Shown one piece after another: positions 6,491 to 64,000 of a stretch of 64,000 nucleotides of DNA. The notes under the pieces were generated by a model. That model saw only the letters and a list, made by a program, of their open reading frames with translations. It was not told the DNA's origin and made no database searches. Numbering within the stretch: position 1 is the stretch's first letter; each line of letters opens with the position of its first letter. Origin of the DNA: Pristiophorus japonicus (lineage: Eukaryota); contig NC_091979.1 in assembly GCF_044704955.1 (NCBI RefSeq), positions 228,656,001 to 228,720,000 of the forward strand. The letters are read 5' to 3'. The translations under genes and the position numbers were made by a program.

Positions 6491-6612
6491 CTAAGTGGGA
6501 GTAGAATACACCAGGGCCTCGGTTACAAGATACAAAAAAGGAAACACCAGAAATATGAGAGCAAGACAGTCAGCTGGAATATAAACTGCTCCTGGACCTG
6601 TCATTAAGCTAA

Positions 6613-8926: not shown

Positions 8927-9092
8927 GCGTCGATCTGCAGGTGAGCCGATGTCATGGTTTAGAAATACAGGAATAGTTGGCCATCTGGGCTGTTGCTTTC
9001 CGCTCCATTGCACACTCTGACTGGCCCGCTGAGTGGGAAGTGTGGGTATAACGGTGAGGATTACCCCTGCGGTATTTCCCTCTGCGACTTAC

Positions 9093-22622: not shown

Positions 22623-22721
22623 TATGTGCTGGCAACATATGCCGGGATTGCCTCTATTCTCTTGTACTTCAAACTGAGACCCAAGAAGACGACACCTCCA
22701 GCAATCACGGGACAGAAATGA
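22623..22721 (+). CDS. ATP5MK: ATP5MK coding exon 2, YVLATYAGIASILLYFKLRPKKTTPPAITGQK*
   Basis: Manual translation: TM segment with VLATY...LYFKLR.KKT; total protein 61 aa; donor at 22727/22728. Confidence 0.95.
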   Translation, partial: YVLATYAGIASILLYFKLRPKKTTPPAITGQK

Positions 22722-40020: not shown

Positions 40021-40879
40021 TAGGGTGTGCGGGGCCAGCCAGTCACGGCCACATTTGCACTGTAACTCTCCAACATCCAGTCCACTCACTATTCCCTCAT
40101 CAACCCCATTGTACAACCCTAATAAACATAAAGAAAATGGACTCCTAAACCTGCATTCTCCCCCTTCACCAACAGCAGGAGCTCCCCATTCCCATGGCCC
40201 ACACTGGGCCCATGATCGGGACACAGCCCCCCCAATCCCGGTCCCTATTTGGAAAGAAATAAAATCAGGTCGCTGTGAGACACAACATCTCGGGCTCCGC
40301 TCGGTGTGGGAACGAAGATGCTTTTAGAGGTGGGAGTGGGTCCAGTGTGGACGTGGTAACGACATGCAGACAGGGCTTTGTATGGTTACAGCACTGGACC
40401 AGCAACCCAGAGCTCCCACGGTCAAATCCCACTAGGGCACGCTGGGAAACTAAATGCAACAAAACATTAAAGCTGCAGGATTGTTGTAAAAACCTAACTG
40501 GTTCATTGAGGAACCTGCCACCCCGACCAGGTAGATGCTGAATGCCCTCGAAAGTGACCAGGGCCACTCGAGTGGCCAATAAGGGTTGGACCTGCCAGAG
40601 CTGCCTACATCACAAGAACAAAAATGATGCTCATTAGCTGAAGTGCGAGATTTAAACGCAGTATCAGAACAATATTCATCGAGGAAATTGATGTTTAATC
40701 ACGGTGAGTCGGTGTGAAGTGAGGCGCTGACTGATTAAATTCTGTCACATGCACACTTCACAAGAATTGTGCTCGCCCCCCTCCCCAACTCAGTTTCCAT
40801 GCGTGTTTATATTATGGGATGTATAAAACCGGTGAATAAATGAATTACAATTCCCTCAGTCACTTGTTCAAGCGTCACG

Positions 40880-42372
40880 GAAAAGAGGCTGGAGGGGGGG
40901 GGTGGGGGGGAAGAGAGGCTGGAGGGGGGGGGTGGGGGGAGAAAGAGAGGCTGGGGGGGGGGGGAAGAGAGACTGCTGGGGGGGGGGGAGAGAGACTGGG
41001 GGGGGGGGGAAAGAGAGACTGGGGGGGGGGGGGAAAGAGAGGCTGGGGGGGGGGGGGAAAGAGAGGCTGGGGGGGGGGGGGAAAGAGAGGCTGGGGGGGG
41101 GGGGGAAAGAGAGGCTGGGGGGGGGGGGGAAAGAGAGGCTGGGGGGGGGAAGAGAGGCTGGGGGGGGGAAGAGAGGCTGGGGGGGGAAGAGAGGCTGGGG
41201 GGGGGAAGAGAGGCTGGGGGGGGGAAGAGAGGCTGGGGGGGGGAAGAGAGGCTGGGGGGGGAAGAGAGGCTGGGGGGGGGGAAGAGAGGCTGGGGGGGGG
41301 AAGAGAGGCTGGGGGGGGGAAGAGAGGCTGGGGGGGGGAAGAGGGGCTGGGGGGGGGGAAGAGAGGGGCTGGGGGGGGGGAAGAGAGGGGCTGGGGGGGG
41401 GGAAGAGAGGGGCTGGGGGGGGAAGAGAGGGGCTGGGGGGGGGAAGAGAGGGGCTGGGGGGGGGGAAGAGAGGGGCTGGGGGGGGGGAAGAGAGGGGCTG
41501 GGGGGGGAAGAGGAGGGGCTGGGGGGGGTAAGAGAGGGGCTGGGGGGGGGAAGAGAGGGGCTGGGGGGGGGGGAAGAGAGGGGCTGGTGGGGGGAAGAGA
41601 GGGGCTGGGGGGGGGGAAGAGAGGGGCTGGGGGGGGGAAGAGAGGGGCTGGGGGGGGGAAGAGAGGGGCTGGGGGGGGGAAGAGAGGGGCTGGGGGGGGG
41701 GGAAGAGAGGGGCTGGGGGGGGGAAGAGAGGGGCTGGGGGGGGGAAGAGAGGGGCTGGGGGGGGGAAGAGAGGGGCTGGGGGGGGAAGAGAGGGGCTGGG
41801 GGGGGAAGAGAGGGGCTGGGGGGGGGGGAAGAGAGGGGCTGGGGGGGGGGGGGAGAGAAGGGGCTGGGGGGGGGAAGAGAGGGGCTGGGGGGGGGGAGAG
41901 AGGGGCTGGGGGGGGAAGAGAGGGGCTGGGGGGGGGAAGAGAGGGGCTGGGGGGGGGAAAGAGGCTGGGGGGAAGAGAGGGGCTGGGGGGGGGAANNNNN
42001 NNNNNNNNNNNNNNNNNNNNNNNNNNNNNNNNNNNNNNNNNNNNNNNNNNNNNNNNNNNNNNNNNNNNNNNNNNNNNNNNNNNNNNNNNNNNNNNNNNNN
42101 NNNNNNNNNNNNNNNNNNNNNNNNNNNNNNNNNNNNNNNNNNNNNNNNNNNNNNNNNNNNNNNNNNNNNNNNNNNNNNNNNNNNNNNNNNNNNNNAGGGG
42201 GGGGGAGAGGCGGTGGGGGGAGGGGGGGGAGAGGCGGTGGGGAGAGTGGCGCTGGGGGGAGGGGGAGAGGCGCTGTGGGTGGGGGGGGAGAGGCGCTGTG
42301 GGTGGGGGGGGAGAGGCTCTAGGGGTGGGGGGGGAGGGGGGAGGGGAGGGGGGGGGAGGGGGAGGGGGGGTA
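40880..42372 (+). repeat. G-run minisatellite AAGAGAGG(GG)CT(G)n spanning an assembly gap (N 41996-42195)
   Basis: Directly visible; 200 Ns. Confidence 0.95.
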
Positions 42373-43454
42373 AGGCACTTTGGCTGGGGGAGGCATGCAC
42401 TTGAATCTTGGGATGCGAAGTTCCAGTGACACATTCCGGTGAAACTTCAGGGTGTAGCCTATCCTCCAAGTGGACCAATCAGAAACTAAGGATGGAGCAT
42501 GTTGGCCATTTTGGCAGTACAAATAAACGCGTCCTTTTATTATATAAACCCCTCACTTATAGAAGAATTGCCGTGCCTCCCTCTGTCTACCAGCTGTTTA
42601 AATATTGATGTTCCATATTATTTTATATTAATTATATGAGCCCCTCACTTGTTGAGGAAGTTCCGAGCCTCCTTCTCATGCTCACTGTGCCCCAGCTCCG
42701 TGAGATGTCTATATATTATATATTGTATTATCAGCCCTCACTTGTGGAAGAAGTGGGGCGCCTTCCTCTGTAAACCAGCTCTGCCAGATGTCTGTCTAAT
42801 ATGAGATAGGTGTTATATTATGGACCCTCACTTGTGGAAGAAGTGGCGTCTCCCTCTCGTACTCAGTGTTCCAGCTGTGACATGTCTAGATACTGATGTT
42901 ATATATTGTTATATTACATGATTTGAGGTAAGTGGGATTAAACTGGATAACCTCTTGTTGGCTGGCTCAGATACGATGGTAAATACTTCAGGGAATCAAA
43001 TACGGCCAGTGATCTCCTGGACGGGTTGGAGAGGAATTTTCCCAGATTTTTTTCCCCCCGTTGGCCTGGGTTTTTTATCTGTTTTTTTGCCTCTCCCAGA
43101 AGATCGCACTGGGGTGGAGTGTAAAATGTTGTGATGCATGGTGTGTCGCAATTGTGTGGGATGGACTTGTTGGGCTGGATGCTCTCTGCCTTTCACCCAT
43201 TGTTCATAGGTTTACATGCAACCTTCAGGGCTGCTGACCGAAGGCCATGTGGCTCTTTGTTGGCAGGCGCGGACACGATGGACTGAAATGGCTCCCTTCT
43301 GCGCTGTAAATTGCTATGTTTTCTATATTGTTATGACATTATTTGATGTTATATATTGCTATATTGTGATTTGCTATACCCGGTCTGACCGATGCTCACT
43401 TGTGACAGAAGTTACACCTCCCTCATGCCCAGTGCTCCAGCTCTCCCAGATGTC

Positions 43455-44514: not shown

Positions 44515-44650
44515 TTTCAGCAGCCGCCTGGTGCGCTTTGCGACACCCGCCGCCCTTAGTAAACAGCGCGCCGTTCCGCCATACGGCAATGCTGGTAGAG
44601 CTCGCTCACAACTTCGCAACGCTTCGGGCAAAATCTGCTTTACGGATTTG
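44507..44650 (-). promoter_or_regulatory. TAF5: TAF5 CpG promoter/5'UTR with YY1-like AAAATGGCGG overlapping the ATG
   Basis: GCCGCCATTTT on the + strand at about 44508-44518; CpG-rich context. Confidence 0.55.
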
Positions 44651-45371
44651 TCACCTTTTAAAGGGACAGGCCTCTTGTTCAGGGTGGGCATATGTCAGAG
44701 TGAGGCCATTCAGCCCATCTTCATTCGTCCATCCAGGACAACCCCAAACTAAAGCAATATACTGCGGATATTGGAATCTGGAATAAAAACAGAAAATGCT
44801 GGAAATCTCAGACAGTCAGGCAGCATCTGTGGAGAGGCACCCTAAACTACCCACACTGCAAGTTGTGTCTCAGTGTGTGCGGATAACCCCACACATCACA
44901 CCGGGATAGGGAATCCCCATAAATCACATGGATAGGGAATCCCCATCCACACATCATCATCATCATCATCATCATAAGCGGTCCATCAAAGCGAGGATGA
45001 TTTGCTTCCACGTCAAAAAAAGGCTGAGTTCACAGGGGTTTCGAAAGAAGAACCCGAACTACATCCTCAAGGGTGGAAGATGCCTATGCGTGTATTTTTT
45101 TAATGTGTGATGGCTGTTGCACACTAGCCACCACACGGGCTTGACAGAACTAGGTCTTGGTCCAGTGGCAAGGATTACCCAAGACAAATAGAGACCCAGT
45201 GTGCACACATATCGCAGTGTGGGCTGGTCCGTGCTGCACCTGGGCCCCAACTCAAGCCTCTCCAGGGCCCCGATCACATCGCTCCACAGACAGGGATAGG
45301 GAACTCCATACATTACACAGGGATAGGGAATCCCCACACATCACACAGAGATAGGGAATCCCCACACATCG

Positions 45372-46647
45372 GTACAAGTCAGCATGGATTTATGAAAGGG
45401 AATTCATGCTTGACAAATCTTCTAGAATTTTTTGACGATGTAACTAGTAGAGTGGACAAGGGAGAACCAGTGGATGTGGTGTATTTGGACTTTCAAAAGG
45501 CTTTTGACAAAGTCCCACACAAGAGATTAGTGTGCAAAATTAAAGCACGTGGTATTGGGGGTAATGTATTGACATGGATAGAGAACTGGTTGGCAGACAG
45601 GAAGCAAAGGTCCTTTTCAGAATGTCAGGCAGTGACTAGTGGGGTACTGCAAGGTTCAGTGCTGGGATCCCAGCTATTTACAATAAACATTAATAATTTG
45701 GATGAAGGAATTGAATGTAATATCTCCAAGTTTGCAGATGACACTAAGCTGGGTGGCAGTGTGAGCTGTGAGGAGGATGCTAAGAGGCTGCAGGGTGACT
45801 TGGACAGGTTAGGTGAGTGGGCAAATGAATGGCAGATGCAGTATAATGCAGATAAATGTGAGGTTATCCACTTTGGTGGCAAAAACAGGAAGGCAGATTA
45901 TTATCTGAATGGTGACAGATTAGGAAAACAGGAAATGCAACGAGACCTGGGTGTCATGGTACATCAGTCATTGAAAGTTGGCATGCAGGTACAGCAGGCA
46001 GTGAAGAAGGCAAATGGCATGTTGGCCTTCATAGCGAGAGGATTTGAGTATAGGAGCAGGGAGGTCTTACTGCAGTTGTACAGGGCCTTGGTGAGGCCAC
46101 ACCTTGAATATTGTGTACAGTTTTGGTCTCCTAATCTGAGGAAGGACGTTCTTGCTATTGAGGGATTGCAGTGAAGGTTCACCAGAGTGATTCCCGGGAT
46201 GGCAGGACTGACATATGAAGAAAAACTGGATCGACTAGGCTTATATTCACTGGAATTTAGAAGAATGAGAGGGGACCTCATAGAAACATATAAAATTCTG
46301 ACGGGATTGGACAGGTTAGGTGCAGGAAGAATGCTCCCGATGTTGGGGAAGTCCAGAACCAGGGGTCACAGTCTAAGGCTAAGGATAAGACCGAGATAAG
46401 AAATTTCTTCACTCAGAGAATTGTGAACCTGTGGAATTCTCTACCACAGAAAGTTGTTGAGGCCAGTTCGTTCGATATATTCAAAAGGGAGTTAGATGCG
46501 GCCCTTACGGCTAAAGGGGTATGGAGAGAAAGCAGGAATGGGGTACTGAAGTTGCATGATCAGCCATGATCATATTGAATGGTGGTGCAGGCTCGAAGGG
46601 CTGAATGGCCTACTCCTGCAACCATTTTCTATGTTTCTATGTTTCTA
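45372..46647 (+). mobile_element. CR1 LINE 3' fragment (RT and 3'UTR)
   Basis: RT motifs including FADD; TTTCTATG repeat tail. Confidence 0.93.
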
Positions 46648-47355
46648 TCACACAGGGATAGGGAATCCTCACATATCACACAGGGACAGAGAACTCCATA
46701 CATCACACAGGGATAGAGAAATCCATACATCACACAGGGATAGAGAATCCCATCCACACAAAGGGATAGTAAACCCCAACAGAGCACAGAGGGATATGAA
46801 CCCCAGTACATCATATAAGGATAGGAACCACGATACCGCACAATCTGTAACCTCATCGTTCCGCACATCCCTAACTGCTTGCCCCACCTGTGACACTGAT
46901 GGTCTGACCACTTTGGGGAATGATTGATCTGCTAAGATGTCACTGAGCTTTGCGTAAGAGAAAATAGAAATTAATTTACAGAAAGTTAGGATTTCATTGA
47001 TCTCCCAAGGTTACTGGTGTTGGTTTTCAGTGATAACTAAATGAAAACATGTCACTTAGGAAAGAAAAATATATTCATTAGTGATAACTGGTGGCATGTT
47101 GCTAAATGGTGTTAATAATTAACTCATCACAATAATGTTTAAACAAATGTTCCCTGTCGCCCACTAACTCAATCCTGCTCCCCGGCCACTGTCTCAGGCT
47201 GAATCAGAATGTTCAGACGCTCACTAAGACTGCCTATTTCCACCTCCGTAACATCGCCCATTTCCTCCCCTACCTCAACCCAACTCCATATCCTCTCCTT
47301 CAGTAGGGCTGCTGACTTCCACCCCCATAATATGACCCACCTCTGCCGCTACATT

Positions 47356-50300
47356 AGCACATACACAACAATTCCAATTTTAGTATATCTGTAAAGCATG
47401 CACTTCCATGTTCCGCCACCAGGGAGCTCATCCTGAAGTTCCAAGGGATCCCAGCAGCCATTGGGAGCACTGTATAATAAGCCGGCCCCTAAGGCCTGAT
47501 CCTCACTCTGGAGTGTCTTATGAAAGACTGAGGTCACTGTTACTTTAATCTCCCTGTGTGCAGCCTCATCTGTGTTAGGAACACAATAACTGGCGACGAG
47601 AATACGAATCCAACGTAAAGATACAGCAAACTGTGGGCATCCTGGAGAAATTCTCGGAGGGTGAGGACTGGGAAGCCTATGTCAAATGGCTAGACAAGTA
47701 CTTTGTAGCCAACGAGCTGGACAGAGAAGGAAGCGCTGCAAAAAGGAGAGCGGTCCTCCTCACAGTCTGCGGGGCACCAACCTACAGCCTCATGAAGAAT
47801 CTTCTGGCTCCGGTGAAACCCACAGATAAGTCGTATGAGGAGCTGTATACACTGGATCGGGAGCATCTTAACCCGAGGGAGAGCGTGCTGATGGCGAGGT
47901 ATCGGTTCTACACATGCCAGCGATCTGCAGGTCAGGAAGTGGCGAGCTATGTTGCTGAGCTAAGGCGACTAGCAGGACAATGTGAGTTTGATGGATAACT
48001 GGAGCAAATGCTCAGAGACTTTTTTGTATGGGGCATTGGCCACGAGACTATCCTATGAAAACTTTTGACTGTAGAGACACCGACCCTCAGTAAGGCCATT
48101 GCGATAGCACAGACGTTTATGTCCACCAGTGATAACACCAAACAAATCTCTCAGCACACAAGTGCTAGCAATGTTCATAAATTAACTGGAACTGTGTTTG
48201 CGAGCAGAAATGTACAGGGCAGAACTCACGAGTCTGCAACTGCCAGCAGGCCTCAGGTGACCCAGATGAATCAGAGTCCCCAACAAAGGATGAATGCAAG
48301 GCAATTCACACCTTGTTGGCGTTGTGGAGGCTTCCATTCAGCCTATTCATGCCGCTTCAAAGGGTATGTTTGCAAGAGCTGTGGAACAATGGGGCACCTC
48401 CAACGAGCTTGCAGATGAGCTGCAAGCTCTGCAAAACCTGCTAACCACCACGTGGCAAAGGAAGATCAGTCCATGGTGGATCAAAGCAATTTTGAGCCTC
48501 AGAGAGAGGAGGCAGATGCTGAAGTACACTGGGTACACACATTTTTGACGAAATGTCCACCTATAATGCTAAACGTAAAATTGAATGGCTTACCCGTAGC
48601 CATGAAACTGGACACTGGCGCTAGCCAATCCATCATGAGTAAAAAGATATTTGAGAGACTGTGGTGCAACAAGGCATTCAGATCAGCCCTGAGCCTCATC
48701 CACACAAAACTGAGACCGTACACCAAAGAGCTTATCACTGTCCTGGGCAGCGCCATGGTCAAGGTCACTTACGAGGGCACGTTGCACGAACTGCCACTTG
48801 GGATTGTCCCGGGCGATGGCCCCACACTGCTTAGAAGGAGCTGGCTGGGCAAAATCCGTTGCAACTGGGATGACATCCGAGTGCTATCATATGTCGATGA
48901 GGCCTCATGTACCCAGGTTCTTAACAAATTTCCTTCCCTTTTTGAGCCAGGCATTGGAAACTTTTCCGGGGCGAAAGTGCGGATCCACTTGGTCCCAGAG
49001 GCACGACCCATTCACCACAAGGCGCAAGCGGTAACTCACATGATGAGGGAGAGAGTGGAAATCGAGCTGGTTGGCTGCAACGCGAGGGCATCATTTCCCG
49101 AGTGGAATTCAGCAAGTGGGCCAGCCCGATTGTTCCAATACTCAAAAGTGATGGCACGGTCAGGATTTGCGGTGATAATAAGTAACTATAACCATTTCTC
49201 GCTACAGGACCAATACCCACTACCTAAGGCAGACGACCTATTTGCGACGCTGACAGGAGGCAAGACATTCACCAAGCTCGACCTGACTTCGGCCTACATG
49301 ATGCAGGAGCTGGAGGAGTCTTCGAAGGGCCTCACCTGCATCAACACGCACAAGGGACTGTTCATCTACAACAGATGCCCGTTTGAAATTTGGTCGGCTG
49401 CAGCGATCTTCCAGAGAAACACGGAGAGCCTACTCAAGTCGGTACCACGCATGGTGGTTTTTCAGGACGACATATTGGTCACGGGTCAGGACAACGTCGA
49501 GCACCTACAAAACCTGGAGGAGGTCCTCCAGTGACTGGATCGTGAAGGGCTGCAGCTGAAGAGGTCGAAATGTGTCTTCATGGCAACAGAAGTGGAGTTT
49601 TTGGGTAGAAAGTTCGTGGCGGACGGCATTCGGCCCACAGACGCCAAGACAGAGGCTATCAGGAATGCGCCCAGGCCACAAAACGTCACAGAGCTGCTGT
49701 CATTCCTGGGACTCCTCAACTATTTTGGTAACTTTCTACCGGGGTTAAGCACCCTTTTAGAGCCCCTACATGTGTTATTGTGCAAAGGTGAGAACTGGGT
49801 ATGGGGAAAACACCAAGTAATTGCTTTTGAGAAAGCCAGAAACATTTTATGCTCCAACAAGCTGCTTGTATTGTATAACCCGTGTAAAAGACTTGTGCGA
49901 GCACGTAATGCGTCGTTGTATGGAGTTGGGTGTGTATTACAACAAGTTAGCGCTGTGGGGAAGTTGCAACCTGTCGACCATGCCTCCAGGAGCTTGTCTA
50001 AGGCCGAGAGGGCCGACAACATGATTGAGAAAGAGGCATTAGCGTGTGTGTTCGGGGTAAAGAAAATGCATCAGTACCTGTTTGGCCTCAAATTTGAGCT
50101 GGAAACCGATCACAAGCCCCTCACATCCCTGTTCGCCAAAAACAAGGGGATAAATACTAATGCCTCTGCCCGCATACAAAGGTGGGCACTCACGCTATCA
50201 GTGTATAACTAAACCATCCGCCACAGGCCAGGCACCGAGAACTGTGCGGATGCTCTCAGTCAGCTACCATTGCCCACCACGGGGGTGGAAATTGCGCAGC

Positions 50301-51987
50301 CTGCAAACTTGTTGATGGTGGCGCAGCCCACAGACTTGTTGATCGTCATGGAAGTGTTTGAAAATGATAAATCACCTGTCACGGCCCACCAGATTAGGAC
50401 TTGGACCAGCCAAGATCCTCTGCTGTCCCAAGTAAAAAACTGTGTACTACATGGGAGTTGGGCCAGCATCCCCGTTGAAATGCAAGAGCCAATCAAGCCA
50501 TTCCAGCGGCAAAAGGACGAGCTGTCCATTCAGGCAGACTGCCTGTTGTGGGGTAACCGTGTAGTGCTACCAAAAAAGGGCAGGGAGACGTTCATCTTGG
50601 ATCTCCACAGCACACACCCGGGTATAGTAATGATGAAAGCGATAGCCAGATCCCACGTGTGGTGGCCCGGTATAATGACTCTGACTTAGAGTACTGTGTA
50701 TGGCAATGCAGCGTATGTGCTCAGTTGAGCAACGCGCCCAGAGAGGCACCACTAAGTTTGTGGTCCTGGCCCTCCAGACCATGGTCGAGGATCCATGGCG
50801 GCTATGCGGGCCCGTTTCTCGGTAAAATGTTCCTGGTGGTGGTGGATGCTTTTTCAAAATGGATTGAATGTGAAATAATATCGGGAAGCACCGCCACCGC
50901 CACCATTGAAAGCCTGAGGGCCATTATTGCCACCCACGGCCTGCCTGACATACTGGTCAGTGACAACGAGCCATGTTTCACCAGTGCCGAATTTAAAGAA
51001 TTCATGACCCGCAATGGGATCAAACATGTCACCTTGGCCCCGTTTAAACCAGCCTCCAATGGGCAGGCAGAGCGGGCAGTACAAACCATCAAACAGAGCC
51101 TTAAACGAGTTACAAAAGGCTCACTCCAAACCCGCCTGTCCCAAGTACTGCTCAGCTACCGCACGAGACCCCACTCACTCACAGGGGTGCCCCTGGCTGA
51201 GCTACTCATGAAAAGGGCACTTAAAACCAGACTCTCGCTGGTCCACCCCAACCTGCATGATCAGGTAGAGAGCAGGCGGCAGCAACAAAATGTAAACGAT
51301 GGTCGCGCCACTGTGTCACGGGAAATTGATCTGAATGACCCTGTGTATGTGCTAAACTATGGACATGGCACCAAGTGGATCATGGGCACGGTGATAGCTA
51401 AAGAAGGGAATAGGGTGTTTGTAGTCAAACTAGACAATGAACAAATTTGCAGAAAGCACCTGGACCAAACGTGGCTGCGGTTCACAGACTGCCCTGAACA
51501 ACCCACAGCAGACACCACCTTTTTTGAGCCCACAACACACACCCAAAGGATCAACGACACCATGCCGGACCAGGAGATCAAACTCATCACGCCCAACAGC
51601 CCAGCAAGGCCAGGCTCACCTAGCAGCCCTACAGGGCCAACAACACACCAGAACAGACATTTGTACCGAGGCGGTCCACCAGGGAAAGAAAGGCTCCTGA
51701 CCGTCTCACCTTGTAAATAGTTTTCACTTTGACTTTGGGGGGGGGGGGAGTAATGTTGTGTATCTGTAAAGTATGCACTCCCATGTTCCGCCACCAGGGA
51801 GCTCATCCGCTGAAGTCCCAAGGGATCCCACCATCCCTTGGGAGCACTGTATATAAGCCGGCCCCTAAGGCCTGTTCCTCACTCTGGAGTGTCTTATTAA
51901 AGACTGAGGTCACTGTTACTTTAACCTCCCTGTGTGCAGTCTCATCTGTGTTAGGAACACAATAGGAATGATACAGAGAAGATTAGC
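47356..51987 (+). pseudogene. U6 snRNA fragment (about nt 15-55) split by the Gypsy insertion
   Basis: AGCAC plus inverted ATATACTAAAATTGGAA on the left and GGAATGATACAGAGAAGATTAGC on the right rebuild the U6 core, including the ACAGAGA box. Confidence 0.85.
47361..51964 (+). mobile_element. Full-length degenerate Ty3/Gypsy LTR retrotransposon (about 210-bp LTRs at ~47379-47588 and 51754-51964)
   Basis: PBS TGGCGACGAG at 47591 (tRNA-Ser-like); gag with CCHC knuckles, protease LDTGA, RT FQDD, RNase H, then integrase; G-run PPT; stops and frameshifts; LTRs about 94-95% identical by eye. Confidence 0.95.
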
Positions 51988-52339
51988 CCATCAGCTGCTG
52001 AAGCCCTCATCCATCACCTCTAGACTTGACTATTCCAATACTCCCCTGGCCAGCCTCCCATGTTCCACCCTGTATACTTGAGCTCATCCAAAACTCTGCT
52101 GCCCATGTCCTAGCTCGCACAAAGTCCCATTCAACCATCACCCCCTGTGCTCACTGACCTACTTCCAGTCCGGTAACGCCATGATTTAAAATTCTCTTCC
52201 TCATGTTCAAATCTCTCCACGGCCTCGCCCCTCCCAATCGCTGTAACCTCCTCCAGTCCCACAACCCCAACCCCCAAACTCTGACTCCAGCATCTTGTGC
52301 TTCATCCCAACCCCTCCCTTCACCCTAGCACTGGCAACT

Positions 52340-52935
52340 GTATGGCTCAGAGACGTGGACCATGTACATTACACACCTCAAATCGCTGGAGAAATACCAC
52401 CAACAATGTCTCCACAAGATCCTGCAAATCCCCTGGAATCAGGCCAACATCCCCAGCATCGAAGCACTGACCACACTCGACCAGCTCTGTTGGGCGGGCC
52501 ACATTGTTCGCATGCCTGACACAAGACTCCTAAAGCAAGCGCTATACTTGGAACTCCTACATGGCAAGCGAGCCTCAGGTGGGCAGAGGAAATGTATCAA
52601 AGATACCCTCAAAGCCTCTCTGATAAAGTGCAACATCTCCACCGACACCTGGGAGTCCCTGACCAAAGACCGCCCTAAGTGGAGGAAGAGCATCCGGGAG
52701 GATGCTGAGCAACTCGAGTCTCATCGCCGAGTACATGCAGAAAGCAAGCACAGGCAGCAGAAGGAGCGTGTGGCAAACCAGACTCCCCACCCATCCTTTC
52801 CCTCAACCACTGTGTGCCCCACCTGTGACAGAGACTGTAATTCCTGTATTGGACTGTACAGTCACCTGAGAACTCACTTTTCGAGTGGAAGCAAGTCTTG
52901 ATTCCTCGATTTCGAGAGACTGCCTGCGATGATAC
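52340..52935 (+). mobile_element. RTE-clade LINE 3' fragment
   Basis: WAGHIVRMPDTRL..CPTCDRDC..GLYSHLRTH. Confidence 0.87.
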
Positions 52936-53208
52936 TGGCAACGAGTCTTCAGCCAACTAGATGGAGCTGCTGAGTGCCATGTTGCTGTTATTTTACCTCC
53001 CCACCCCCCCACCCCCATGCCCTGTCCTAGTTGGGTGGAGGGGTGGGAGGGGTTAAAATCTGGGCTTTAATTGGCCCAGGCTGGTATTTTATGGTTTTTT
53101 CCCCCCCAATATCTTTTGACCTTGTGGGAACGAGGGAGTGAAGTGCCTGGATCCTGTGTTTGGCATTCCCCAGAGTACAGCTGTGCCCTTCACACGTTGT
53201 GGGGATTC

Positions 53209-53263
53209 TATAAAGAGCAGCTGTGAGCAGGACTGGACACACCTGTGACGGAGCGTGTGAGAG
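53209..53263 (+). promoter_or_regulatory. TATA box and putative short non-coding first exon of an unidentified gene
   Basis: TATAAA at 53209-53214; GAG|GTGAGT donor at 53263/53264; CAGCTG E-boxes nearby; unique sequence between repeats. Confidence 0.45.
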
Positions 53264-54551
53264 GTGAGTCACTGTGTCTAATGCTTCGTTCCTTACCGGC
53301 AACATTTGCCACTTCTGCCCATGGCTTAAAGACAGTTACCTTTAAATTCCTAATTGAGGAGATCGGTGTCGGCTTGAGTTCCACAGTCAGAACAGCACCA
53401 CTGGCAGGAGGAGTGCGAACCAGAGGACACAGAATGAAAGTGTTGACAAAAGAACCAGAGGGGGAGATGCGGAAAACGCAGCGAGTTATTGTGATCTGGA
53501 ATGCGCTGCCTGAAAGGGCGGTGGGAGCAGATTCAATAGTAACTTTCAAAAAGCAATTGTGTATACATACTTGAAAATAAAACATTTTCAGGGCTATGGG
53601 GAAAGAGCGGGGGAGTGGGACTGATTGGATAACTCTACCAGAGAGCTGGCACAAGCATGATGGGCTGAATGGCCTCTTTCAGTGCTGTATCATGTTTGGA
53701 TTCTAAGACTTGGAAAGAATGTGAGAGAGAACGAGGCCATTAGAGAAGTAGAGATTAGTGGACAACTAGCATGGGTTTTACAAGCCTGAAGATTTTTTTC
53801 TGTTCAGACTCTCTGGATTGCCTGCTGTGTTGTCTGCCCGGTGCCAGGGTTAAGGACGTCTCCTTTGGGCTGGAGAGAAACTTGGAGTGGGAGGGAGAAG
53901 ATCCAGTTGTCATGGTCCATGTGGGTACCAACGACATAGGTAGGACAAAGAAAGAGGTTCTGCTGAGGGTGTATGAGCAGCTAGGGGCTAAATTAAACAG
54001 CAGAACCACAAAAATAATAATCTCTGGATTATTACCTGAGCCAGGAGCAGGTTTGCCTAGGGTAAATAGGATCAGAGAGATGAATCTGTGGCTCAAAGAC
54101 TGGTGTGGGAGGAATGGCCTTCAATTCATAGGGCACTGGCACCAATACTGTGTTAAGAGTGAGCTGTTCCATGGGACGGACTTCACTTGAATCAGGCTGG
54201 GATCAGTGTGTGTGTGTGTGGTTGGGGGGAACCAGAGTGTGACAGGAAGGGACAGAGCATATACACATAAGACAAAATTAAAAGCTCTGTATCTGAATGC
54301 ACGCAGCATTCATAACAAGATAGATGAGTTGACGGCACAAATAGAAATAAATGGGTATGATCTGATAGCCAATACAGAGTTGTGGTTGCAAGGTGACCAA
54401 GGCTGGGAATTGAATATTCAGGGGTATTTGCCATTTCGTAAGGTTAGGCAGAAAGGAAAAGGAGGTGGGGTAACTCTATTAATAAAGGATGAGATCAGTG
54501 TAGTAGTGAGAAATGATATTGGCTCAGAAGATCAAGATGTAGAATCACTTT

Positions 54552-57500
54552 TGTAAAGTCCTTACTCTACAGTATGAAACCACACGAGTTGTGTACAGAC
54601 CTCCAAACAGTAGTAGTGATGTTGGGGAGGGCATCAAACAGGAAATTAGGGGTGCATGCAAAAGGTGCAGAGGTTATCATGGGTGACTTTAATATGCATA
54701 TAGATTGGGCAAACCAAACTGGAAGCAATACGGTGGAGGAGGATTTCCTGGAGTGCATAAGGGATGGTTTTCTAGACCAATATGTCGAGGAACCAACTAG
54801 GGGGGAGGTCATCTTAGACTGGGTGTTGTGTAATGAAAGAAGATTAATTAGCAATCTCGTTGTGCGAGGCTCCTTGGGAAAGAGTGACCATAATATGGTG
54901 GAATTCTACATTAGGATGGAGAATGAAACAGTTAATTCAGAGACCATGGTGCAGAACTTAAAGAAGGGTAACTTTGAAGGTATGAGGCGTGAATTGGCTA
55001 GGATAGATTGGCGAATGATACTTAAGGGGTTGACTGTGGATGGGCAATGGCAGACATTTAGAGACCGCATTGATGAACTACAACAATTGTATATCCTTGT
55101 CTGGCGTAAAAATAAAAAAGGGAAGGTGGCTCAACCATGGCTATCAAGGGAAATCAGGGATAGTATTAAAGCCAAGGAAGTGGCATACAAATTGGCCAGA
55201 AATAGCAGTGAACCCGGGGACTGGGAGAAATTTAGAATTCAGCAGAGGAGGACAAAGGGTTTGATTAGGGCAGGGAAAATAGAGTACGAGAGGAAGCTTG
55301 CAGGGAACATTAAGACGGACTGCAAACGTTTCTATAGATATGTAAAGAGAAAAAGGTTAGTAAAGACAAATGTAGGTCCTCTGCAGTCAGAATCAGGGGA
55401 AGTCATAACAGGGAACAAAGAAATGGCAGACCAATTGAACAAGTACTTTGGTTCGGTATTCACTAAGGAGGACACAAACAACCTTCCGGATATAAAAGGG
55501 GTCAGAGGGTCTAGTAAGAAGGAGGAACTGAGGGAAATTCTTATTAGTCGGGAAATTGTGTTGGGGAAATTGATGGGATTGAAGGCCGATAAATCCCCAG
55601 GGCTTGATGGACTGCATCCCAGAGTACTTAAGGAGGTGGCCTTGGAAATAGCGGATGCATTAACAGTCATTTTCCAACATTCCATAGACTCTGGATCAGT
55701 TCCTATGGAGTGGAGGGTAGCCAATGTAACCCCACTTTTTAAAAAAGGAGGGAGAGAGAAAACAGGGAATTATAGACCGGTCAGCCGAACATCGGTAGTG
55801 GGTAAAATGATGGAATCAATTATTAAGGATGTCATAGCAGCGCATTTGGAAAGAGGTGACATGATAGGTCCAAGTCAGCATGGATTTGTGAAAGGAAAAT
55901 CATGCTTGACAAATCTTCTGGAATTTTTTGAGGATGTTTCCAGTAGAGTGGACAAGGGAGAACCAGTTGATGTGGTGTATTTGGACTTTCAGAAGGCTTT
56001 CGACAAGGTCCCAAACAAGAGATTAATGTGCAAAGTTAAAGCACATGGGATTGGGGGTAGTGTGCTGACGTGTATTGAGAACTGGTTGTCCGACAGGAAA
56101 CAAAGAGTAGGAGTAAATGGGTACTTTTCAGAATGGCAGGCAGTGACTAGTGGGGTACCACAAGGTTCTGTGCTGGGGCCCCAGCTGTTTCATTTTACAT
56201 TAATGATTTAGACGAGGGGATTAAATGTAGTATCTCCAAATTTGCGGATGACACTAAGTTGGGTGGCAGTGTGAGCTGCGAGGAGGATGCTATGAGGCTG
56301 CAGAGTGACTTGGATAGGTTAGGTGACTGGGCAAATGCATGGCAGATGAAGTATAATGTGGATAAATGTGAGGTTATCCACTTTGGTGGTAAAAACAGAG
56401 AGACAGACTATTATCTGAATGGTGACAGATTAGGAAAAGGGGAGGTGCAACGAGACCTGGGTGTCATGGTACATCAGCCATTGAAGGTTGGCATGCAGGT
56501 ACAGCAGGCGGTTAAGAAAGCAAATGGCATGTTGGCCTTCATAGCAAGGGGATTTGAGTACAGGGGCAGGGAGGTGTTACTACAGTTGTACAGGGCCTTG
56601 GTGAGGCCACACCTGGAGTATTGTGTACAGTTTTGGTCTCCTAACTTGAGGAAGGACATTCTTGCTATTGAGGGAGTGCAGCGAAGGTTCACCAGACTGA
56701 TTCCCGGGATGGCAGGACTGACATATCAAGAAAGACTGGATCAACTGGGCTTGTATTCACTGGAGTTCAGAAGAATGAGAGGGGATCTCAAAGAAACGTT
56801 TAAAATTCTGATTAGTTTAGACAGGTTAGATGCAGGAAAAATGTTCCAAATGTTGGTAAGTCCAGAACCAGGGGTCACAGTCTAAGGATAAGGGGTAAGC
56901 CATTTAGGACCGAGATGAGGAGAAACTTCTTCACCCAGAGAGTGGTGAACCTGTGGAATTCTCTACCACAGAAAGTTGTTGAGGCCAATTCACTAAATAT
57001 ATTCAAAAAGGAGTTAGATGTAGTCTTTACTACTAGGGGGATCAAGGGGTATGGCGAGAAAGCAGGAATGGGGTACTGAAGTTGCATGTTCAGCCATGAA
57101 CTCATTGAATGGTGGTGCAGGCACGAAAGGCCGAATGGCCTACTCCTGCACTTATTTTCTATGTCTATGTCTATGGACCCACTGAACCTCGGCGTCCATC
57201 GATTTGCCCCAAATCATCCTGCCTCAAAGAACCCTCTTCTGGTCCATCCGCCTCATATATTAGTCTGGTTGCAGACTTCCTGCACATTCGAGCTAAGTGG
57301 CCACTGAGATTGCAGTTCCTGCAGGCAAACTGTTGAAATCTGCAAGATCTAGCTGAGTGTTTTCCCCCACACTCCAGCATAAGTTAAAGTTTCCATTGTT
57401 GGGAACAAAGGGACTATGGCCAGGCATTCCGTGCTGACTGTCCCTTTGACTGCTCTTAATTACCCTATTAGTGGGTGTCAATGGCCCCATCCCGGGCCGC

Positions 57501-58476
57501 ATTGTTCACTGTGATGGCGTGAATGTCCGTTCAGCCTGCCATTGTCTCTTTTGAAGTCCTACTCTGGGATCTATTGCTGCCTGGGGAGTGTCGGACTGCC
57601 CCTGCCTGCCTGCGGGGCTCTGAGTCACATTGATGTTGACTACCTGATCCCTCGCCGTGTTAGAGGCAGAATTGCGCGCGTGTGTTATTTTCGTCTCTTC
57701 CTCCCCCGCCCTGAAAGTTTGAGCTATCAACGCCACTGCTTCCAAGGTCAAATCCTTGGTCTCAATTAATTTGCGGAAAATTCCCGCATGACCGATGCCC
57801 TCAATAAAGAAGTCCCTTAGCATCTCCCCCCTGCAGGGGTCTGTGAACTTAGAGGCTGGCCAAACGCCGGAGGTCCGCTGCTCTGTCCTTCACGACGTTG
57901 GTGGGTGTAGAATCTGTGTCGGGCCATATGTATGCTACTTGCCGGTTTGAGGTGCTCCCCGATCAATTTGCTAAGTTCTTCAAAGGTTTTGTCCGCCGGC
58001 TTTTCGGGTGCTAGTAAGTCCTTCATGAGCGCGTAAGTCTTTGGTCCGCAGATGGTCAAAAGATGAGCCCTTTGCTTGTCAGCTGCTGCATCCCCCAGCC
58101 ATTCTTTCGTAACAAAGCTTTGCTGAAGCCTCTCGACAAAATCGTCCCAGTCTTCCCCCAACACAGTACCGTTCCTCTGTGCTACCGGTGGTCATTCTCG
58201 TGGGTCGTGAATTCCCATTTCTCATCGCCAATGTAAAGTCATTCCTCTACAGTATGAAACCACACGAGGCACATTCTGGGGACCAGGTCACTCTGTGACC
58301 TTAACGCTTTATTCACAGGAATCCAAAGACAATGACCCTGCGTGGGACCTCCCTTTTTATACTTGTGTGATCAGGTAAGGACTGTCTCCTAAGTTCACCC
58401 CTTGTGGTCAAGGTGTGCATCTAGGTTGAGTGTATACAGTAATACGTGGTGTTACATTGTGGTTACATACATGACA
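54552..58476 (-). mobile_element. Second Gypsy-type LTR element (5' LTR 58232-58476, gag 57175-58200, 37-bp remnant of the 3' LTR at 54552-54588)
   Basis: TG...CA LTR; PBS TGGCGATGAG; gag (GEDWDDFVERL..., CCHC); 5-bp TSD ACTTT at 54547-54551 and 58477-58481. Confidence 0.9.
54589..57174 (+). mobile_element. CR1 LINE 'B' (5'-truncated, near-complete ORF2) inside the LTR element
   Basis: GDFN, SDH, YRPVS, QHGF, YLDFQKAFDKV and GVPQGSVLGP motifs; 3' (CTATGT)n tail at about 57160-57174. Confidence 0.93.
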
Positions 58477-60469
58477 ACTTTGGGTGGAGATAAGAAATAA
58501 TAAGGGAAATAAGTCACCGGTGGGCGTAGTCTACAGGCCCCCAAACTGTTGCACACTGTTGGACAGAGTATAAATCAAGAAATAATGGAGGCTTGTAAGA
58601 AAGGTACGGCAATAATCATGGGCGATTTTAAACTTCATATTGATTGGACAAATCAAATTGGCAAAGGTAGCATTGAGGAAGAGTTCATAGAGTGTATGTG
58701 GCATGGTTTCTTGGAACAATACATTGTGGAACCAACAGGGAGAAGGATATTTTAGATCTGGTAATATGTAAGGAGTCTGGATTAATTAATGATCTTGTAC
58801 TGAAGGATCCTCTTGGAAAGTGTGATCATAACATGGTAGAATTTCAAATTCAGTTTGAGGGTGAGAAAACTAGGTCTGAAACTAGTGTCCTGAACTTAAA
58901 TAAAGGCAATTACAAAGGTATGAAAGGAGAGTTGGTTAAAGTGGACTGGGAAAATACATTTCAGGGCAAGACTGTAGAAAAGCAAAGAAAACTCTCAGCA
59001 AAGATTTATTCCAGTGAGAAAGAAAGACTCTAAGAGAAGGATGAACCCTCCGTGACTAACTAAGGAAATAAAGGATGGTATCAAATTGCAAACAAAGACA
59101 TACAATGTTGCGAAGGACAGTGGGAGGCCAGAGGATTGGGAAATTTTAGAAATCTGCAAAGGACAAGTAAAAAAAATGATAGAGAGAAGATAGCATATGA
59201 GAGTAAACTAGCAAAAAATGTAAAAACAGATAAGTATTTAAAAAGGAAGAGAGTAGCTAAAGTAAACATTGGTCCCTTAGAGGATGAGACTGGGGAATTA
59301 ATAATGGGAGACTTTGAACAAATATTTTATATCGGTCTTCACAGTAGAAGACACTAAAAACATCCCAATAATTGATAATCAAGGAGCGATTGGGGGGGGG
59401 GGTACTTAAAACAATCAATTAGAGAAAAAGTACTAGGCAAACTAATGGGAATAAGGCGGACAAGGTCCCTGGACCCGATGGCCTGCATCCTAGGGTCTTA
59501 AAAGAAGTGGCTGCAGAGATAGTGGATGCATTGGTTGTAATCTACCAAAATTCTCTGAATTCTGAAGAGGTCCCAGCGGACTGGAAAACCGCAAATGTAA
59601 CGTCCCTATTTAAAAAAGGAGGCAGACAAAAAGCAGGAAACTATAGTCCAGTTAGCCTAACATTTGTCATTGGGAAAATGCTGGAGTCCATCATTAAGGA
59701 AGTAGTAGCAGGACATTTAGAAAAACATAATGCCGTCAAGCAGAGTCAGCATGGTTTTATGAAAGGGAAATCACGTTTGACAAATTTGCTGGAGTTCTTT
59801 GTGGATGTAACGAGCAGAGTGGATAAAGGGGAACCAGTGGATGTGGTGTATTTGGATTTCCAGAAGGCATTCAATAAGGTGCCACGTAAAAGGTTACTAC
59901 ACAAGATAAGAGCTCATGGGGTTGGGGGTAATATATTAGCATGGATAGTGGATTGGCTAACTAACAGAAAACAGAGAGTCTGGATAAATGGGTGATTTTC
60001 CAGTTGGCAAACGGTAACTAATGGGGTGCTGCAGGGATCGGTGCTGGGTCCTCAACTATTTACAATTTATATTAATGACTTGGATGAAGGGACCGAGTGT
60101 AATGTAGCCAAGTTTGCTGATGATACATAGATGGGTGGGAAAACAAATTATGAGGAGGACACAAAAAATCTGCAAAGGGATATAGACAGGCTAAGTGAGT
60201 GGGCAAAAAGTTGGCAGATGGACTATAATGTGGGAAAATGTGAGGTTATCCACTTTGGTAGGAAAAATAAAAAAGCTAATTATTTGCAATTGCAAAGTGC
60301 TGCAGTGCAGAGGGACCTGGAGGTCCTTGTGCATGAAACACAAAAAGTTAGTATGCAGGTACAGCCCGAAAATGTTGATAAAAGAAAGCTGATGTTCGGT
60401 TTCCCAGCGGGGCAGTGTCGGTCTCTGAGGTTCCAGCTCCCAGCCCGCTGGGCTCTATTTCTCTTTCAG

Positions 60470-60518
60470 ATGCTGAGGCTGTGGATTCCGGTCGCCTTCC
60501 TCCTCACCTGGGCCAATG
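60470..60518 (+). CDS. Putative signal-peptide exon MLRLWIPVAFLLTWAN(G) of an unidentified secreted or membrane protein
   Basis: tttctctttcag|ATG ... AATG|GTAAGG: strong acceptor directly before ATG, 49 nt, phase-1 donor, hydrophobic leader. Confidence 0.6.
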
Positions 60519-61209: not shown

Positions 61210-63561
61210 GGGCCCAAGTTTCCACATGATTTGCGCCTGATTTTTAGGAGCAACTGGTGGAGAACGGACTATCTTAGAAATTGCAATTCTCCACATTTTC
61301 TTTTCTGCAGTTCTAGTCAGTTAGAACAGTTTCACTTTGGAACAGAATTTTTTCTTCAAAAGGGGGCGTGTCCGGCCACTGACACTTGATTTCAAATTTT
61401 CCACAGTGAAAACGTACTCCAAACTAACTTAGAATGGAGCAAGTGAAGATTTTTGTAGAACTGAAAACAATAAAAAATCAGGCGCATGTTAGAAATTAGG
61501 CGTCCAGAACAAGGTGGGGGGGGGAAGGGAAGTCATTAAATTCTATAATAAATCCTTATTTATACTTCTACAAATATTATACAAATAAATCCAACCTGAA
61601 TAAACATTTATAAGCAAAGAAAAGATTAAATAAACCATCTTCCTACCTGTGTGAAAGTGCTTCAGCCAGGGAGAATGCTGCAGGAAGCCTCACAAGTTGA
61701 GGCAGCCGTTCGTTCCCGCGGGGGGGGGGGGAGGAGGAAGCCGTTCGTTCCCGCGGGGGGGGGGGGGGGGGGAGGAGGAAGCCGTTCATTCCCGTGTGGG
61801 GGGGGGGGGAGGAGGCAGCCGTTTGTTCCCGCGGGGGGGGGGGGGAGGAGGAAGCCGTTCGTTCCCGCGGGGGGGGGGGGGAGGAGGAAGCCGTTCGTTC
61901 CCGCGGGGGGGGGGGGGGAGGAGGCAGCCGTTTGTTCCCGCGGGGGGGGGGGGGGGGAGGAGGAAGCCGTTCGTTCCCGTGTGGGGGGGGGGGAGGAGGA
62001 AGCCGTTCGTTCCCGCGGGGGGGGGGGGGGGAGGAGGCAGCCGTTTGTTCCCGCGGGGGGGGGGGGGAGGAGGAAGCCGTTCGTTCCCGCGGGGGGGGGG
62101 GGGAGGAGGAAGCCGTTCGTTCCCGCGGGGGGGGGGGGGGGAGGAGGCAGCCGTTTGTTCCCGCGGGGGGGGGGGAGGAGGAAGCCGTTCGTTCCCGTGT
62201 GGGGGGGGGGAGGAGGCAGCCGTTTGTTCCCGCGGGGGGGGGGGGGGAGGAGGAAGCCGTTCGTTCCTGCGGGGGGGGGGGGAGGAGGAAGCCGTTCGTT
62301 CCCGCGGGGGGGGGGGAGGAGGAAGCCGTTCGTTCCCGCGGGGGGGGGGGAGGAGGCAGCCGTTTGTTCCCGCGGGGGGGGGGGAGGAGGAAGCCGTTCG
62401 TTCCCGCGGGGGGGGGGGGGAGGAGGAAGCCGTTCGTTCCTGCGGGGGGGGGGGGGGAGGAGGAAGCCGTTCGTTCCCGCGGGGGGGGGGGAGGAGGAAG
62501 CCGTTTGTTCCCGCGGGGGGGGGGGGGGGGGAGGAGGAAGCCGTTCGTTCCCGCGGGGGGGGGGGGGGGAGGAAGCCGTTCGTTCCCGTGTGGGGGGGGG
62601 GAGGAGGCAGCCGTTTGTTCCCGCGGGGGGGGGGGGGGAGGAGGCAGCCGTTTGTTCCCGCGGGGGGGGGGGAGGAGGAAGCCGTTCGTTCCCGTGTGGG
62701 GGGGGGGAGGAGGCAGCCGTTTGTTCCCGCGGGGGGGGGGGGGGGAGGAGGAAGCCGTTCGTTCCCGCGGGGGGGGGGGAGGAGGAAGCCGTTCGTTCCC
62801 GCGGGGGGGGGGGAGGAGGCAGCCGTTTGTTCCCGCGGGGGGGGGGGGGGGAGGAAGCCGTTCGTTCCCGCGGGGGGGGGGGGAGGAGGCAGCCGTTTGT
62901 TCCCGCGGGGGGGGGGGAGGAGGAAGCCGTTCGTTCCCGGGGGGGGGGGAGGAGGAAGCCGTTCCCGCGGGGGGGGGGGGGGGGAGGGAGTGCGGGCCCG
63001 ACCGACCGACCGAACGCAGCGGGGGGGAGGAAGCCGTTCCAGACGGTGGGCGGGGGGGGGGAAGGAGACAGTGAGAAGGCTGCAGGAAGCCTCACAAGTT
63101 CAGCAGCCATTCCCCGACAGCAGGGGGGAGGGGAGGCCGTCAGGAAACGACTGCCTCAACTTTCTGAGGCTTCCTGCAGCCTTCTCACTGCTGCAAGAAG
63201 CCTCAGTGCTGATGGCAATGTGCTTTTATTAAAAAATGTTCAAAAATTAAACAGTTACAAAGAACTATAAAAATGGCCGAGTGCCAATGTTTCCTTCACA
63301 CTGCGCGTGCGCGAACGCTCCAATGCACACGCGCAGGGTTGCCGGCAGGAAAAAAACTAATTTAAATGGTACCCGCCCCCTCCCACTTACAAAATCGGCA
63401 CGAGTGGTAGGCTCCGCCCCCCTGGGCACCGCGCCAAGCAGACATGGAGCTGCAGGGCGTTCCAGAATCGCGCGTTTTTTTTCCGCCGCCGTTTTCGGCG
63501 CGAAAAACGGGCGCCCAGCTCAGAGGGGCACCCATTTTTTATTGTGTGGAAACTTGGGGCC
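61210..63561. mobile_element. Non-autonomous TIR element (PIF/Harbinger-like) with an internal minisatellite
   Basis: TIRs GGGCCCAAGTTTCCACA / TGTGGAAACTTGGGGCC; ATT on both flanks; no transposase ORF. Confidence 0.7.
61703..62985 (+). repeat. About 35-bp G-run minisatellite AGGAGGAAGCCGTTCGTTCCCGC(G)n
   Basis: Directly visible. Confidence 0.96.
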
Positions 63562-63579
63562 ATTGTGCCATGCGACATA

Positions 63580-64000
63580 GAATGTAGGTATACTGCAGCC
63601 TGTGACAGACTGTAGGTATACTGCAGCCTGAGACATGGACTGTAGGTATACTGCAGCCTGCGACACAGACTGTAGGTATACTGCAGCCTGCGACACGGAT
63701 TGTAGGTATACTGCAGCCTGCGACACAGACTGTAGGTATACTGCAGCCTGCGACACAGACTGTAGGTATACTGCAGCCTGCGACACAGACTGTAGGTATA
63801 CTGCAGCCTGCGACACAGACTGTAGGTATACTGCAGCCTGCGACACGGACTGTAGGTATACTGCAGCCTGCGACACAGACTGTAGGTATACTGCAGCCTG
63901 TGACATGGACTGTAGGTATACTGCAGCCTGCGACAGACTGTAGGTATACTGCAGCCTGTGACATGGACTGTAGGTATACTGCAGCCTGCGACACAGACTG
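63580..64000 (+). repeat. 30-bp tandem repeat GACTGTAGGTATACTGCAGCCTGCGACACA, running off the window end
   Basis: At least 14 near-perfect copies. Confidence 0.96.

Follow-up and report, generated by a model that had tools for sequence, protein, structure and literature searches.

At positions 60470..60518 of the plus strand, the 64,000-nt stretch of DNA analysed here (the window) almost certainly carries the exon that encodes the signal peptide of a pancreatic-lipase-family protein, P0001, of a squalomorph shark, with Pristiophorus japonicus as the most likely species. This protein belongs to one of two elasmobranch groups of pancreatic lipases, referred to below as clade A, for which the best reading of the sequences is that of a convergent pancreatic pseudo-lipase. 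In its full form, a scenario to which we assign an even chance, elasmobranchs would possess a secreted pancreatic pseudo-lipase of their own, derived from an ancient paralog whose sturgeon counterpart has remained canonical; its pocket block at position 178 would be the one also acquired by placental PLRP1, and the catalytic serine would subsequently have been lost twice.

The exon lies behind the acceptor TTTCAG|ATG, with the ATG at 60470 as the first codon after the splice site; it is 49 nt long, reads MLRLWIPVAFLLTWAN followed by a single G, and ends in phase 1 at a GTAAGG donor (60519), exactly as the initial annotation had described. The window has three YAG|ATG exons of 40–61 nt that end at a phase-1 GTRAG donor; of these candidates, the one at 60470 possesses the best pyrimidine tract (12/14, versus 2 and 6), and no other is hydrophobic (mean over 8 residues of 2.33, versus ~1.0). 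When the in-frame sequence surrounding the exon was used as a query, a single protein was retrieved, with an E-value (0.52) that is weak because the query is short: P0001, a 469 aa-long protein of Pristiophorus japonicus named 'inactive pancreatic lipase-related protein 1-like' in UniRef, which starts with the residues of the exon (16/16 identical). Residue 17 of P0001 is an Ala, as fits a codon G+CN split by a phase-1 intron, and the mature lipase N-terminus follows next; the mature chains in the PDB align from residue 17–18, as expected for a cleaved signal peptide on a phase-1 exon of its own. The leader is also conserved in other species, a check proposed together with the exon itself: it is present in 9 of the 12 clade A models, in which 7–16 of the 16 residues are identical (11/16 at most between other sharks and the sawshark exon). 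In two ortholog models, those of Pristis and Hemiscyllium, translation runs on from the intron into the exon as LFQ|M, as it does in the window, and the acceptor directly preceding the ATG is therefore conserved. The three models without the leader exon (P0010, P0014 and P0015) have unrelated N-termini, probably reflecting mis-predicted starts. Downstream, intron 2 runs from 60519 to the end of the window at 64000 (plus strand; >3.48 kb, filled with tandem repeats), exon 3 onward lying beyond the window; a motif scan found no lipase exon downstream of the leader within the window, and in a tblastn search of orthologs against the window the leader was the only hit below an E-value of 0.2 among the matches listed (5 orthologs).

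P0001 is composed of a Lipase domain (PF00151; E-value 6.7e-129) and a PLAT domain (PF01477; 1.7e-16). It matches pancreatic lipases with E-values of 1e-150 to 1e-175, versus 1e-59 to 1e-61 for lipoprotein lipase, and its relatives in the PDB are rat PLRP2 and dog PLRP1 (~1e-174). The catalytic triad is present (S170/D193/H280) and aligns with Ser169/Asp193/His280 of the human pancreatic lipase precursor (PMC3886669). All six canonical cysteine disulfide pairs are found, and the disulfide-closed lid is full-length (C254–C278), with no deletion relative to the bony-vertebrate rows. The AlphaFold model (pLDDT of 76, below 50 at residues 224–274 and low at 197–201) is uninformative on the active site.

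About 7 kb upstream of the leader, the window holds a TATA box (TATAAA, 53209..53214, plus strand) and, 50 nt past its end, a donor GAG|GTGAGT with the first intron base at 53264 and no ATG in between; both had been noticed in the initial annotation and were found exactly there. The corresponding non-coding exon 1 would span 53238..53263 (plus strand, ~25–30 nt), with its 5' end placed from the position of the TATA box and its 3' end at the donor. On both strands of the 64 kb, only one TATA(A/T)A box, that at 53209, has a GTRAG donor within the next 130 nt and no intervening ATG, and the stretch around this pair (52934–53484) is among the few that are not repeated. Immediately upstream, at 53178..53196 (plus strand), is a putative bipartite PTF1-like site, probably a pancreatic acinar promoter element, in which an E-box (CAGCTG) and an RBPJ-type box (TTCACACG) are separated by a 5-nt spacer; it ends 13 nt upstream of the TATA box, and its TC-box departs from TTTCCC at 2 of 6 bases. 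CAGCTG-N5-TTCACACG has a single match on both strands of the 64 kb (mean of 0.0 over 30 simulations), the pattern having been composed after the site was seen, and a relaxed version has 2 matches versus 2.6 expected. A further candidate RBPJ-type site, TGTGGGAA, lies upstream at 53123..53130 (plus strand); its pattern is frequent (16 matches in the window versus 12.4 expected), and a match by itself is weak. PTF1 sites, described for acinar enzyme promoters (PMC2586380 and PMC9545688), combine an E-box with a TC-box at a distance of one or two helical turns; a 5-nt spacing of the two boxes is given in bioRxiv 10.1101/2020.12.02.409003. Genes of the PNLIP/PNLIPRP1 type follow a 13-exon plan in which the leader exon comes after a separate first exon (PMC8287333). 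According to PMC4362833, the catshark pancreas expresses Pnliprp1, Pnliprp2, colipase and Ptf1a; to judge by the names, the catshark 'Pnliprp1' transcript would be a clade A member, and no lipase rows are present in two supplement files of that paper.

Very probably, then, a PTF1 (Ptf1a/E-protein/RBPJ) site and the TATA box at 53178–53214 drive acinar transcription from ~53238, a very short non-coding exon is joined to the ATG exon across a 7.2-kb transposon nest, and the product is secreted into the pancreatic juice; from the sequence we infer, with the same considerable confidence, the use of exon 1 and of the PTF1-like promoter, and predict the splice 53263->60470. An improbable alternative is that the gene is right and its true first exon and promoter lie elsewhere, the TATA box and donor at 53209–53264 being incidental. 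The ortholog models of Amblyraja (a skate) and Mobula (a devil ray) bear on this question, as their overextended N-termini resemble the promoter region 53109–53263 read across frames, the Amblyraja model (P0012) joining its homologous-looking extension straight onto the leader. When these extensions were scored as DNA profiles against 824 bins, that of 53109–53263 ranked 3 (Amblyraja) and 1 (Mobula), and its score was reached by 3/1000 and 1/1000 shuffled queries, respectively, in a targeted, post hoc test for which the bin was picked after inspection. Over the whole window, DNA-level similarity is not significant, since 16/100 and 15/100 shuffles equalled or exceeded the top score, and 5 of the 7 other model extensions do not lead to this site, which favours a promoter at another location. 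With amino-acid frameshift alignment over the whole window, the Amblyraja extension scored 44 at the promoter versus a shuffled best of 47.6, and the highest score of the Mobula extension, 65 (no shuffle control), fell at 53237. Set against the elsewhere-promoter reading are the targeted test and the uniqueness of the TATA/donor pair, in non-repeated sequence and adjoining the PTF1-like site. As to the nature of the gene, the initial annotation had proposed a hidden, lineage-restricted, tissue-specific gene for a secreted or surface protein, such leader exons being typical of secreted and Ig-superfamily genes. The 49-nt phase-1 leader exon and the fact that the gene is not PCGF6 agree with this, and a secreted, tissue-specific gene does start here, with a phase-1 exon for the signal peptide and, ahead of it, a probable non-coding exon, P0001 being of the pancreatic lipase family. 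The remainder we consider practically dismissed by the 16/16 identity to an annotated lipase-family protein: P0001 carries Lipase and PLAT domains rather than those of the Ig superfamily, and 708 proteins related to it (E≤1e-100) are found throughout jawed vertebrates. The gene itself is already known from databases (UniRef), and the leader exon is an ordinary find as a 'hidden gene'.

Intron 1 (53264..60469, plus strand; 7,206 nt) is almost entirely transposon-derived, with ~104 nt of unique sequence before the acceptor. Pfam matches, LTRs and a target duplication bear out the earlier reading of this 7-kb intron as a CR1/LTR nest and resolve it into three levels, an outer CR1 containing an LTR element that itself contains an inner CR1. 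The outer CR1-type LINE (53600..60365, plus strand, limits approximate; Pfam Lipase_GDSL_2 and RVT_1) encodes an SGNH/GDSL esterase in ORF1 (53759–54190), and its ORF2 resumes at 58477 with the frame unbroken across the insertion. The LTR retrotransposon remnant that splits ORF2 (54552..58476, minus strand) has TG...CA ends and is flanked by a 5-bp target duplication (ACTTT at 54547–54551 and 58477–58481); its right LTR occupies 58232–58476, the left one is cut at 54588, and the two match over 37 nt at 94.6%. A gag-like frame judged by eye (57817–58191) has no Pfam match. The inner CR1-type LINE (54588..57176, plus strand, 3' end approximate; Exo_endo_phos_2 and RVT_1) ends in a microsatellite tail. 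The Pfam GDSL-lipase match at 53759–54187 was rejected as a part of the lipase gene, as it corresponds to ORF1 of the CR1 element; CR1 ORF1 encodes an esterase, and its occurrence inside intron 1 of a lipase gene is a coincidence that could mislead annotation.

Elsewhere in the window, exons of PDCD11/RRP5 (Pfam S1_RRP5) and the TAF5 gene (Pfam TFIID_NTD2 and WD40) are found on the minus strand. Between them, a short plus-strand exon behind a clean acceptor (~22623–22721) resembles the C-terminal half of ATP5MK (USMG5/DAPIT), a putative assignment made by motif. The succession PDCD11, ATP5MK, TAF5 is also that of human 10q24, where PCGF6 is divergent from TAF5. A six-frame scan of the window with a RING-finger pattern detected no PCGF6-like exon, in agreement with the initial annotation. 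The lipase gene thus occupies the place of PCGF6, and the presumed human synteny is broken at 44516–53209, the divergent neighbour of TAF5 being a pancreatic lipase paralog. Between TAF5 and the lipase promoter lies a near-full-length Gypsy-type LTR retrotransposon (47383–51964), the LTRs of which (47383–47588 and 51758–51964) match at 93%; it has protease, reverse transcriptase and integrase matches, frames broken by stops, and a TATA-like motif of its own in each LTR. Long G-rich tandem arrays occupy introns at ~1150–2700, 6600–8950, 40850–42400 and 61700–63000, with a 200-base N gap inside one array near 42 kb, and an array of short period lies at the window end (63570–64000).

Two family searches, in which the best 120 of 708 and the best 120 of 841 matches were examined, reveal two elasmobranch paralogs among the matches listed, namely clade A and clade B (12 clusters each). 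Clade A clusters, formed at 90%, were each judged by their representative, and the clade B analyses used 11 of the 12 clusters, one short isoform being omitted. The 11 other clade A proteins are 71–83% identical to P0001, those of clade B ~53–55%. Both paralogs are on the same chromosome-length contig in 6/6 species for which both are listed with contig data, and they are probably adjacent. An unrooted tree of 53 of 152 proteins, built from the mature part without the trait columns and without fused or unnamed records, supports clade A at 100/100 and places a sturgeon lipase (P0016, Acipenser oxyrinchus) as its sister (100/99), with clade B grouping with an elephant-shark lipase and mammalian PLRP1 nesting inside mammals; a mixture model on 31 rows recovers the same topology (clade A with sturgeon, PLRP1 within mammals). 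A purely chondrichthyan duplication giving rise to A and B was rejected (A + B constraint, p-AU 0.008, one model), and no holocephalan clade A member was found among the matches listed. The tree, unrooted and thinly sampled, suggests several ancient jawed-vertebrate pancreatic lipase lineages with differential loss: A and sturgeon; B, elephant shark and one lungfish copy; coelacanth/bichir/gar; and tetrapod/teleost (P0016–P0020, P0069, P0073, P0083, P0126, P0142 and P0148). Clade A is nearly as conserved as clade B, the N-domain identities between the same species being 0.73–0.85 for A versus 0.79–0.87 for B (8 pairs).

Position 178 is bulky in all clade A proteins (Ile in P0001, Val in the 11 others), a beta-branched residue at this site being a hallmark of mammalian PLRP1 (DPVEA is visible in 1RP1). 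Among the best 120 of 708 matches, DP[VI] is restricted to the 12 clade A and 6 mammalian PLRP1-type sequences. Ser152 is replaced by Gly in 6/12 clade A proteins, those of 5 batoids and of Heptranchias (one record), and within the same 120 matches, 5 rows of which escaped the Ser pattern, the Gly152 form is seen in these six only. Two changes on the tree are needed for Ser152, and two for the bulky residue at 178. The complete Ser-Asp-His triad is retained in six shark proteins, P0001 included. Throughout clade A (12/12), Asp176 and His263 are kept, D79 and R256 are both replaced, and the lid residues N240/S243/D247 as well as Q368 and K399 are retained (colipase-facing and lid positions from Table 2 of PMC7094207). 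The beta-5 (HGYLE) and beta-9 loops are altered in a conserved manner, and an extra Cys238 is present in 12/12, versus 1/41 other rows; a new clade-A-specific C130–C238 disulfide was considered and dropped, C130 being also present in 10 bony-vertebrate rows. Clade B is canonical at Ser152, A178, D79 and R256 in 11/11, and the sturgeon sister P0016 keeps Ser152, Ala178, Pro180 and D79, which indicates that the pocket narrowing arose in elasmobranchs. Two marsupial sisters of placental PLRP1 (P0120 and P0151) have Ala178 and Ser180, and Val178 appears to be a placental change.

Compared with mammalian PLRP1 (dog, 1RP1), clade A is alike in its two-domain fold, full lid, bulky residue 178, Asp/Asn at position 403 (Asp in P0001, Asn also in mammalian PLRP1), intact triad in the Ser-bearing shark forms, leader exon predicted to follow a separate first exon, and probable acinar expression. 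It is unlike mammalian PLRP1 in not being orthologous, in its altered beta-5/beta-9 loops, replaced D79/R256 pair and Cys238, and in having Pro180 in P0001 and 11/12 members in all instead of Ala (the Heterodontus protein has a V-E-A motif); moreover, no loss of the catalytic Ser was seen in the mammalian PLRP1 rows, versus the 6/12 of clade A. P0001 likewise shares the fold, triad positions, six disulfide pairs, lid and K399/Q368 with classical PNLIP (human 1LPA), from which it differs by Ile178 and Asp403 in place of Ala178 and Tyr403. Clade B ('PLRP2-like', including smooth-hound SmDL and the elephant-shark lipase) is of the same family and 53% identical to A in the same species, and the sturgeon protein is 60% identical; unlike clade A, both have a canonical site. 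SmDL, which from its forward primer would belong to clade B, is an active serine lipase according to PMC7094207.

On balance, the sequences lean towards a clade A product that is catalytically dead or weak and would modulate fat digestion via colipase or the lipid interface. A beta-branched residue at 178 would narrow the acyl pocket as in mammalian PLRP1; selection on catalysis might then have lapsed, the nucleophile changing from Ser to Gly twice (in batoids and in Heptranchias), while fold, lid and colipase-facing residues would have stayed conserved. The protein would most likely tune fat digestion by binding colipase or by taking up the lipid/bile-salt interface, as a competitor of the clade B lipase, thus acting like PLRP1 but with an independent origin. 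Val178 and Ala180 reportedly inactivate PLRP1 (work ascribed to Roussel, 1998); as P0001 keeps the triad and Pro180, its presumed inactivity would depend on Ile178 and on this mutagenesis. The retention of Asp176 and His263 throughout clade A likewise speaks against a dead enzyme. PMC6386725 describes PLRP1 as a competitor for colipase whose own activity is not detectable. PMC7094207 describes the smooth-hound lipase as active yet colipase-independent, with Asn at position 403 held responsible and Tyr tied to colipase binding, and notes that a stingray lipase is colipase-dependent; the Asp/Asn of clade A at this position and the colipase independence in smooth-hound weaken the idea of competition for colipase.

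The chief rival, possible if clearly less probable, is that clade A proteins retaining Ser152, P0001 among them, are active lipases of altered specificity (acting, for example, on wax esters, phospholipids or ether lipids), or that they are the colipase-dependent lipase postulated for smooth-hound, only the Gly forms being dead. The complete triads of the six Ser-bearing shark proteins and the prevalence of Pro180 speak for such activity, the conserved beta-9/beta-5 loop changes can signal new substrates, and a second, colipase-dependent lipase of the shark pancreas is suggested in PMC7094207. Two observations argue against an active enzyme: one-to-one orthologs twice lost the nucleophile yet stayed conserved, and DP[VI] is confined to clade A and the mammalian PLRP1-type sequences among the best 120 of 708 matches. 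That the P0001 gene is instead a true ortholog of mammalian PNLIPRP1, and the inactive lineage as old as jawed vertebrates, is very improbable. The bulky residue 178, the database name and the V-E-A motif of Heterodontus are what the two have in common, but clade A plus mammalian PLRP1 as one clade is rejected (p-AU 0.00046) with the trait columns excluded from the tree, and mammalian PLRP1 lies among mammalian lipases, next to marsupial sisters with Ala178.

No description of an independent origin of clade A, or of its Ser loss, was found in the literature searched, the coverage of which excludes most subscription journals. The names 'PLRP1-like', 'PLRP2-like' and 'triacylglycerol lipase-like' carried by the 12 clade A orthologs track neither orthology nor activity. 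The role of mammalian PLRP1, a colipase competitor lost in herbivores according to PMC6386725, has so far rested on one lineage. An independent elasmobranch pseudo-lipase, of which some orthologs have the Ser and others have lost it, and whose sturgeon sister has a canonical site, would offer a natural series on the purpose of inactive lipases. If the proposed reading is true, nature would have repeated PLRP1 independently in clade A, and in carnivorous vertebrates selection would repeatedly have favoured a dead lipase that modulates fat digestion.
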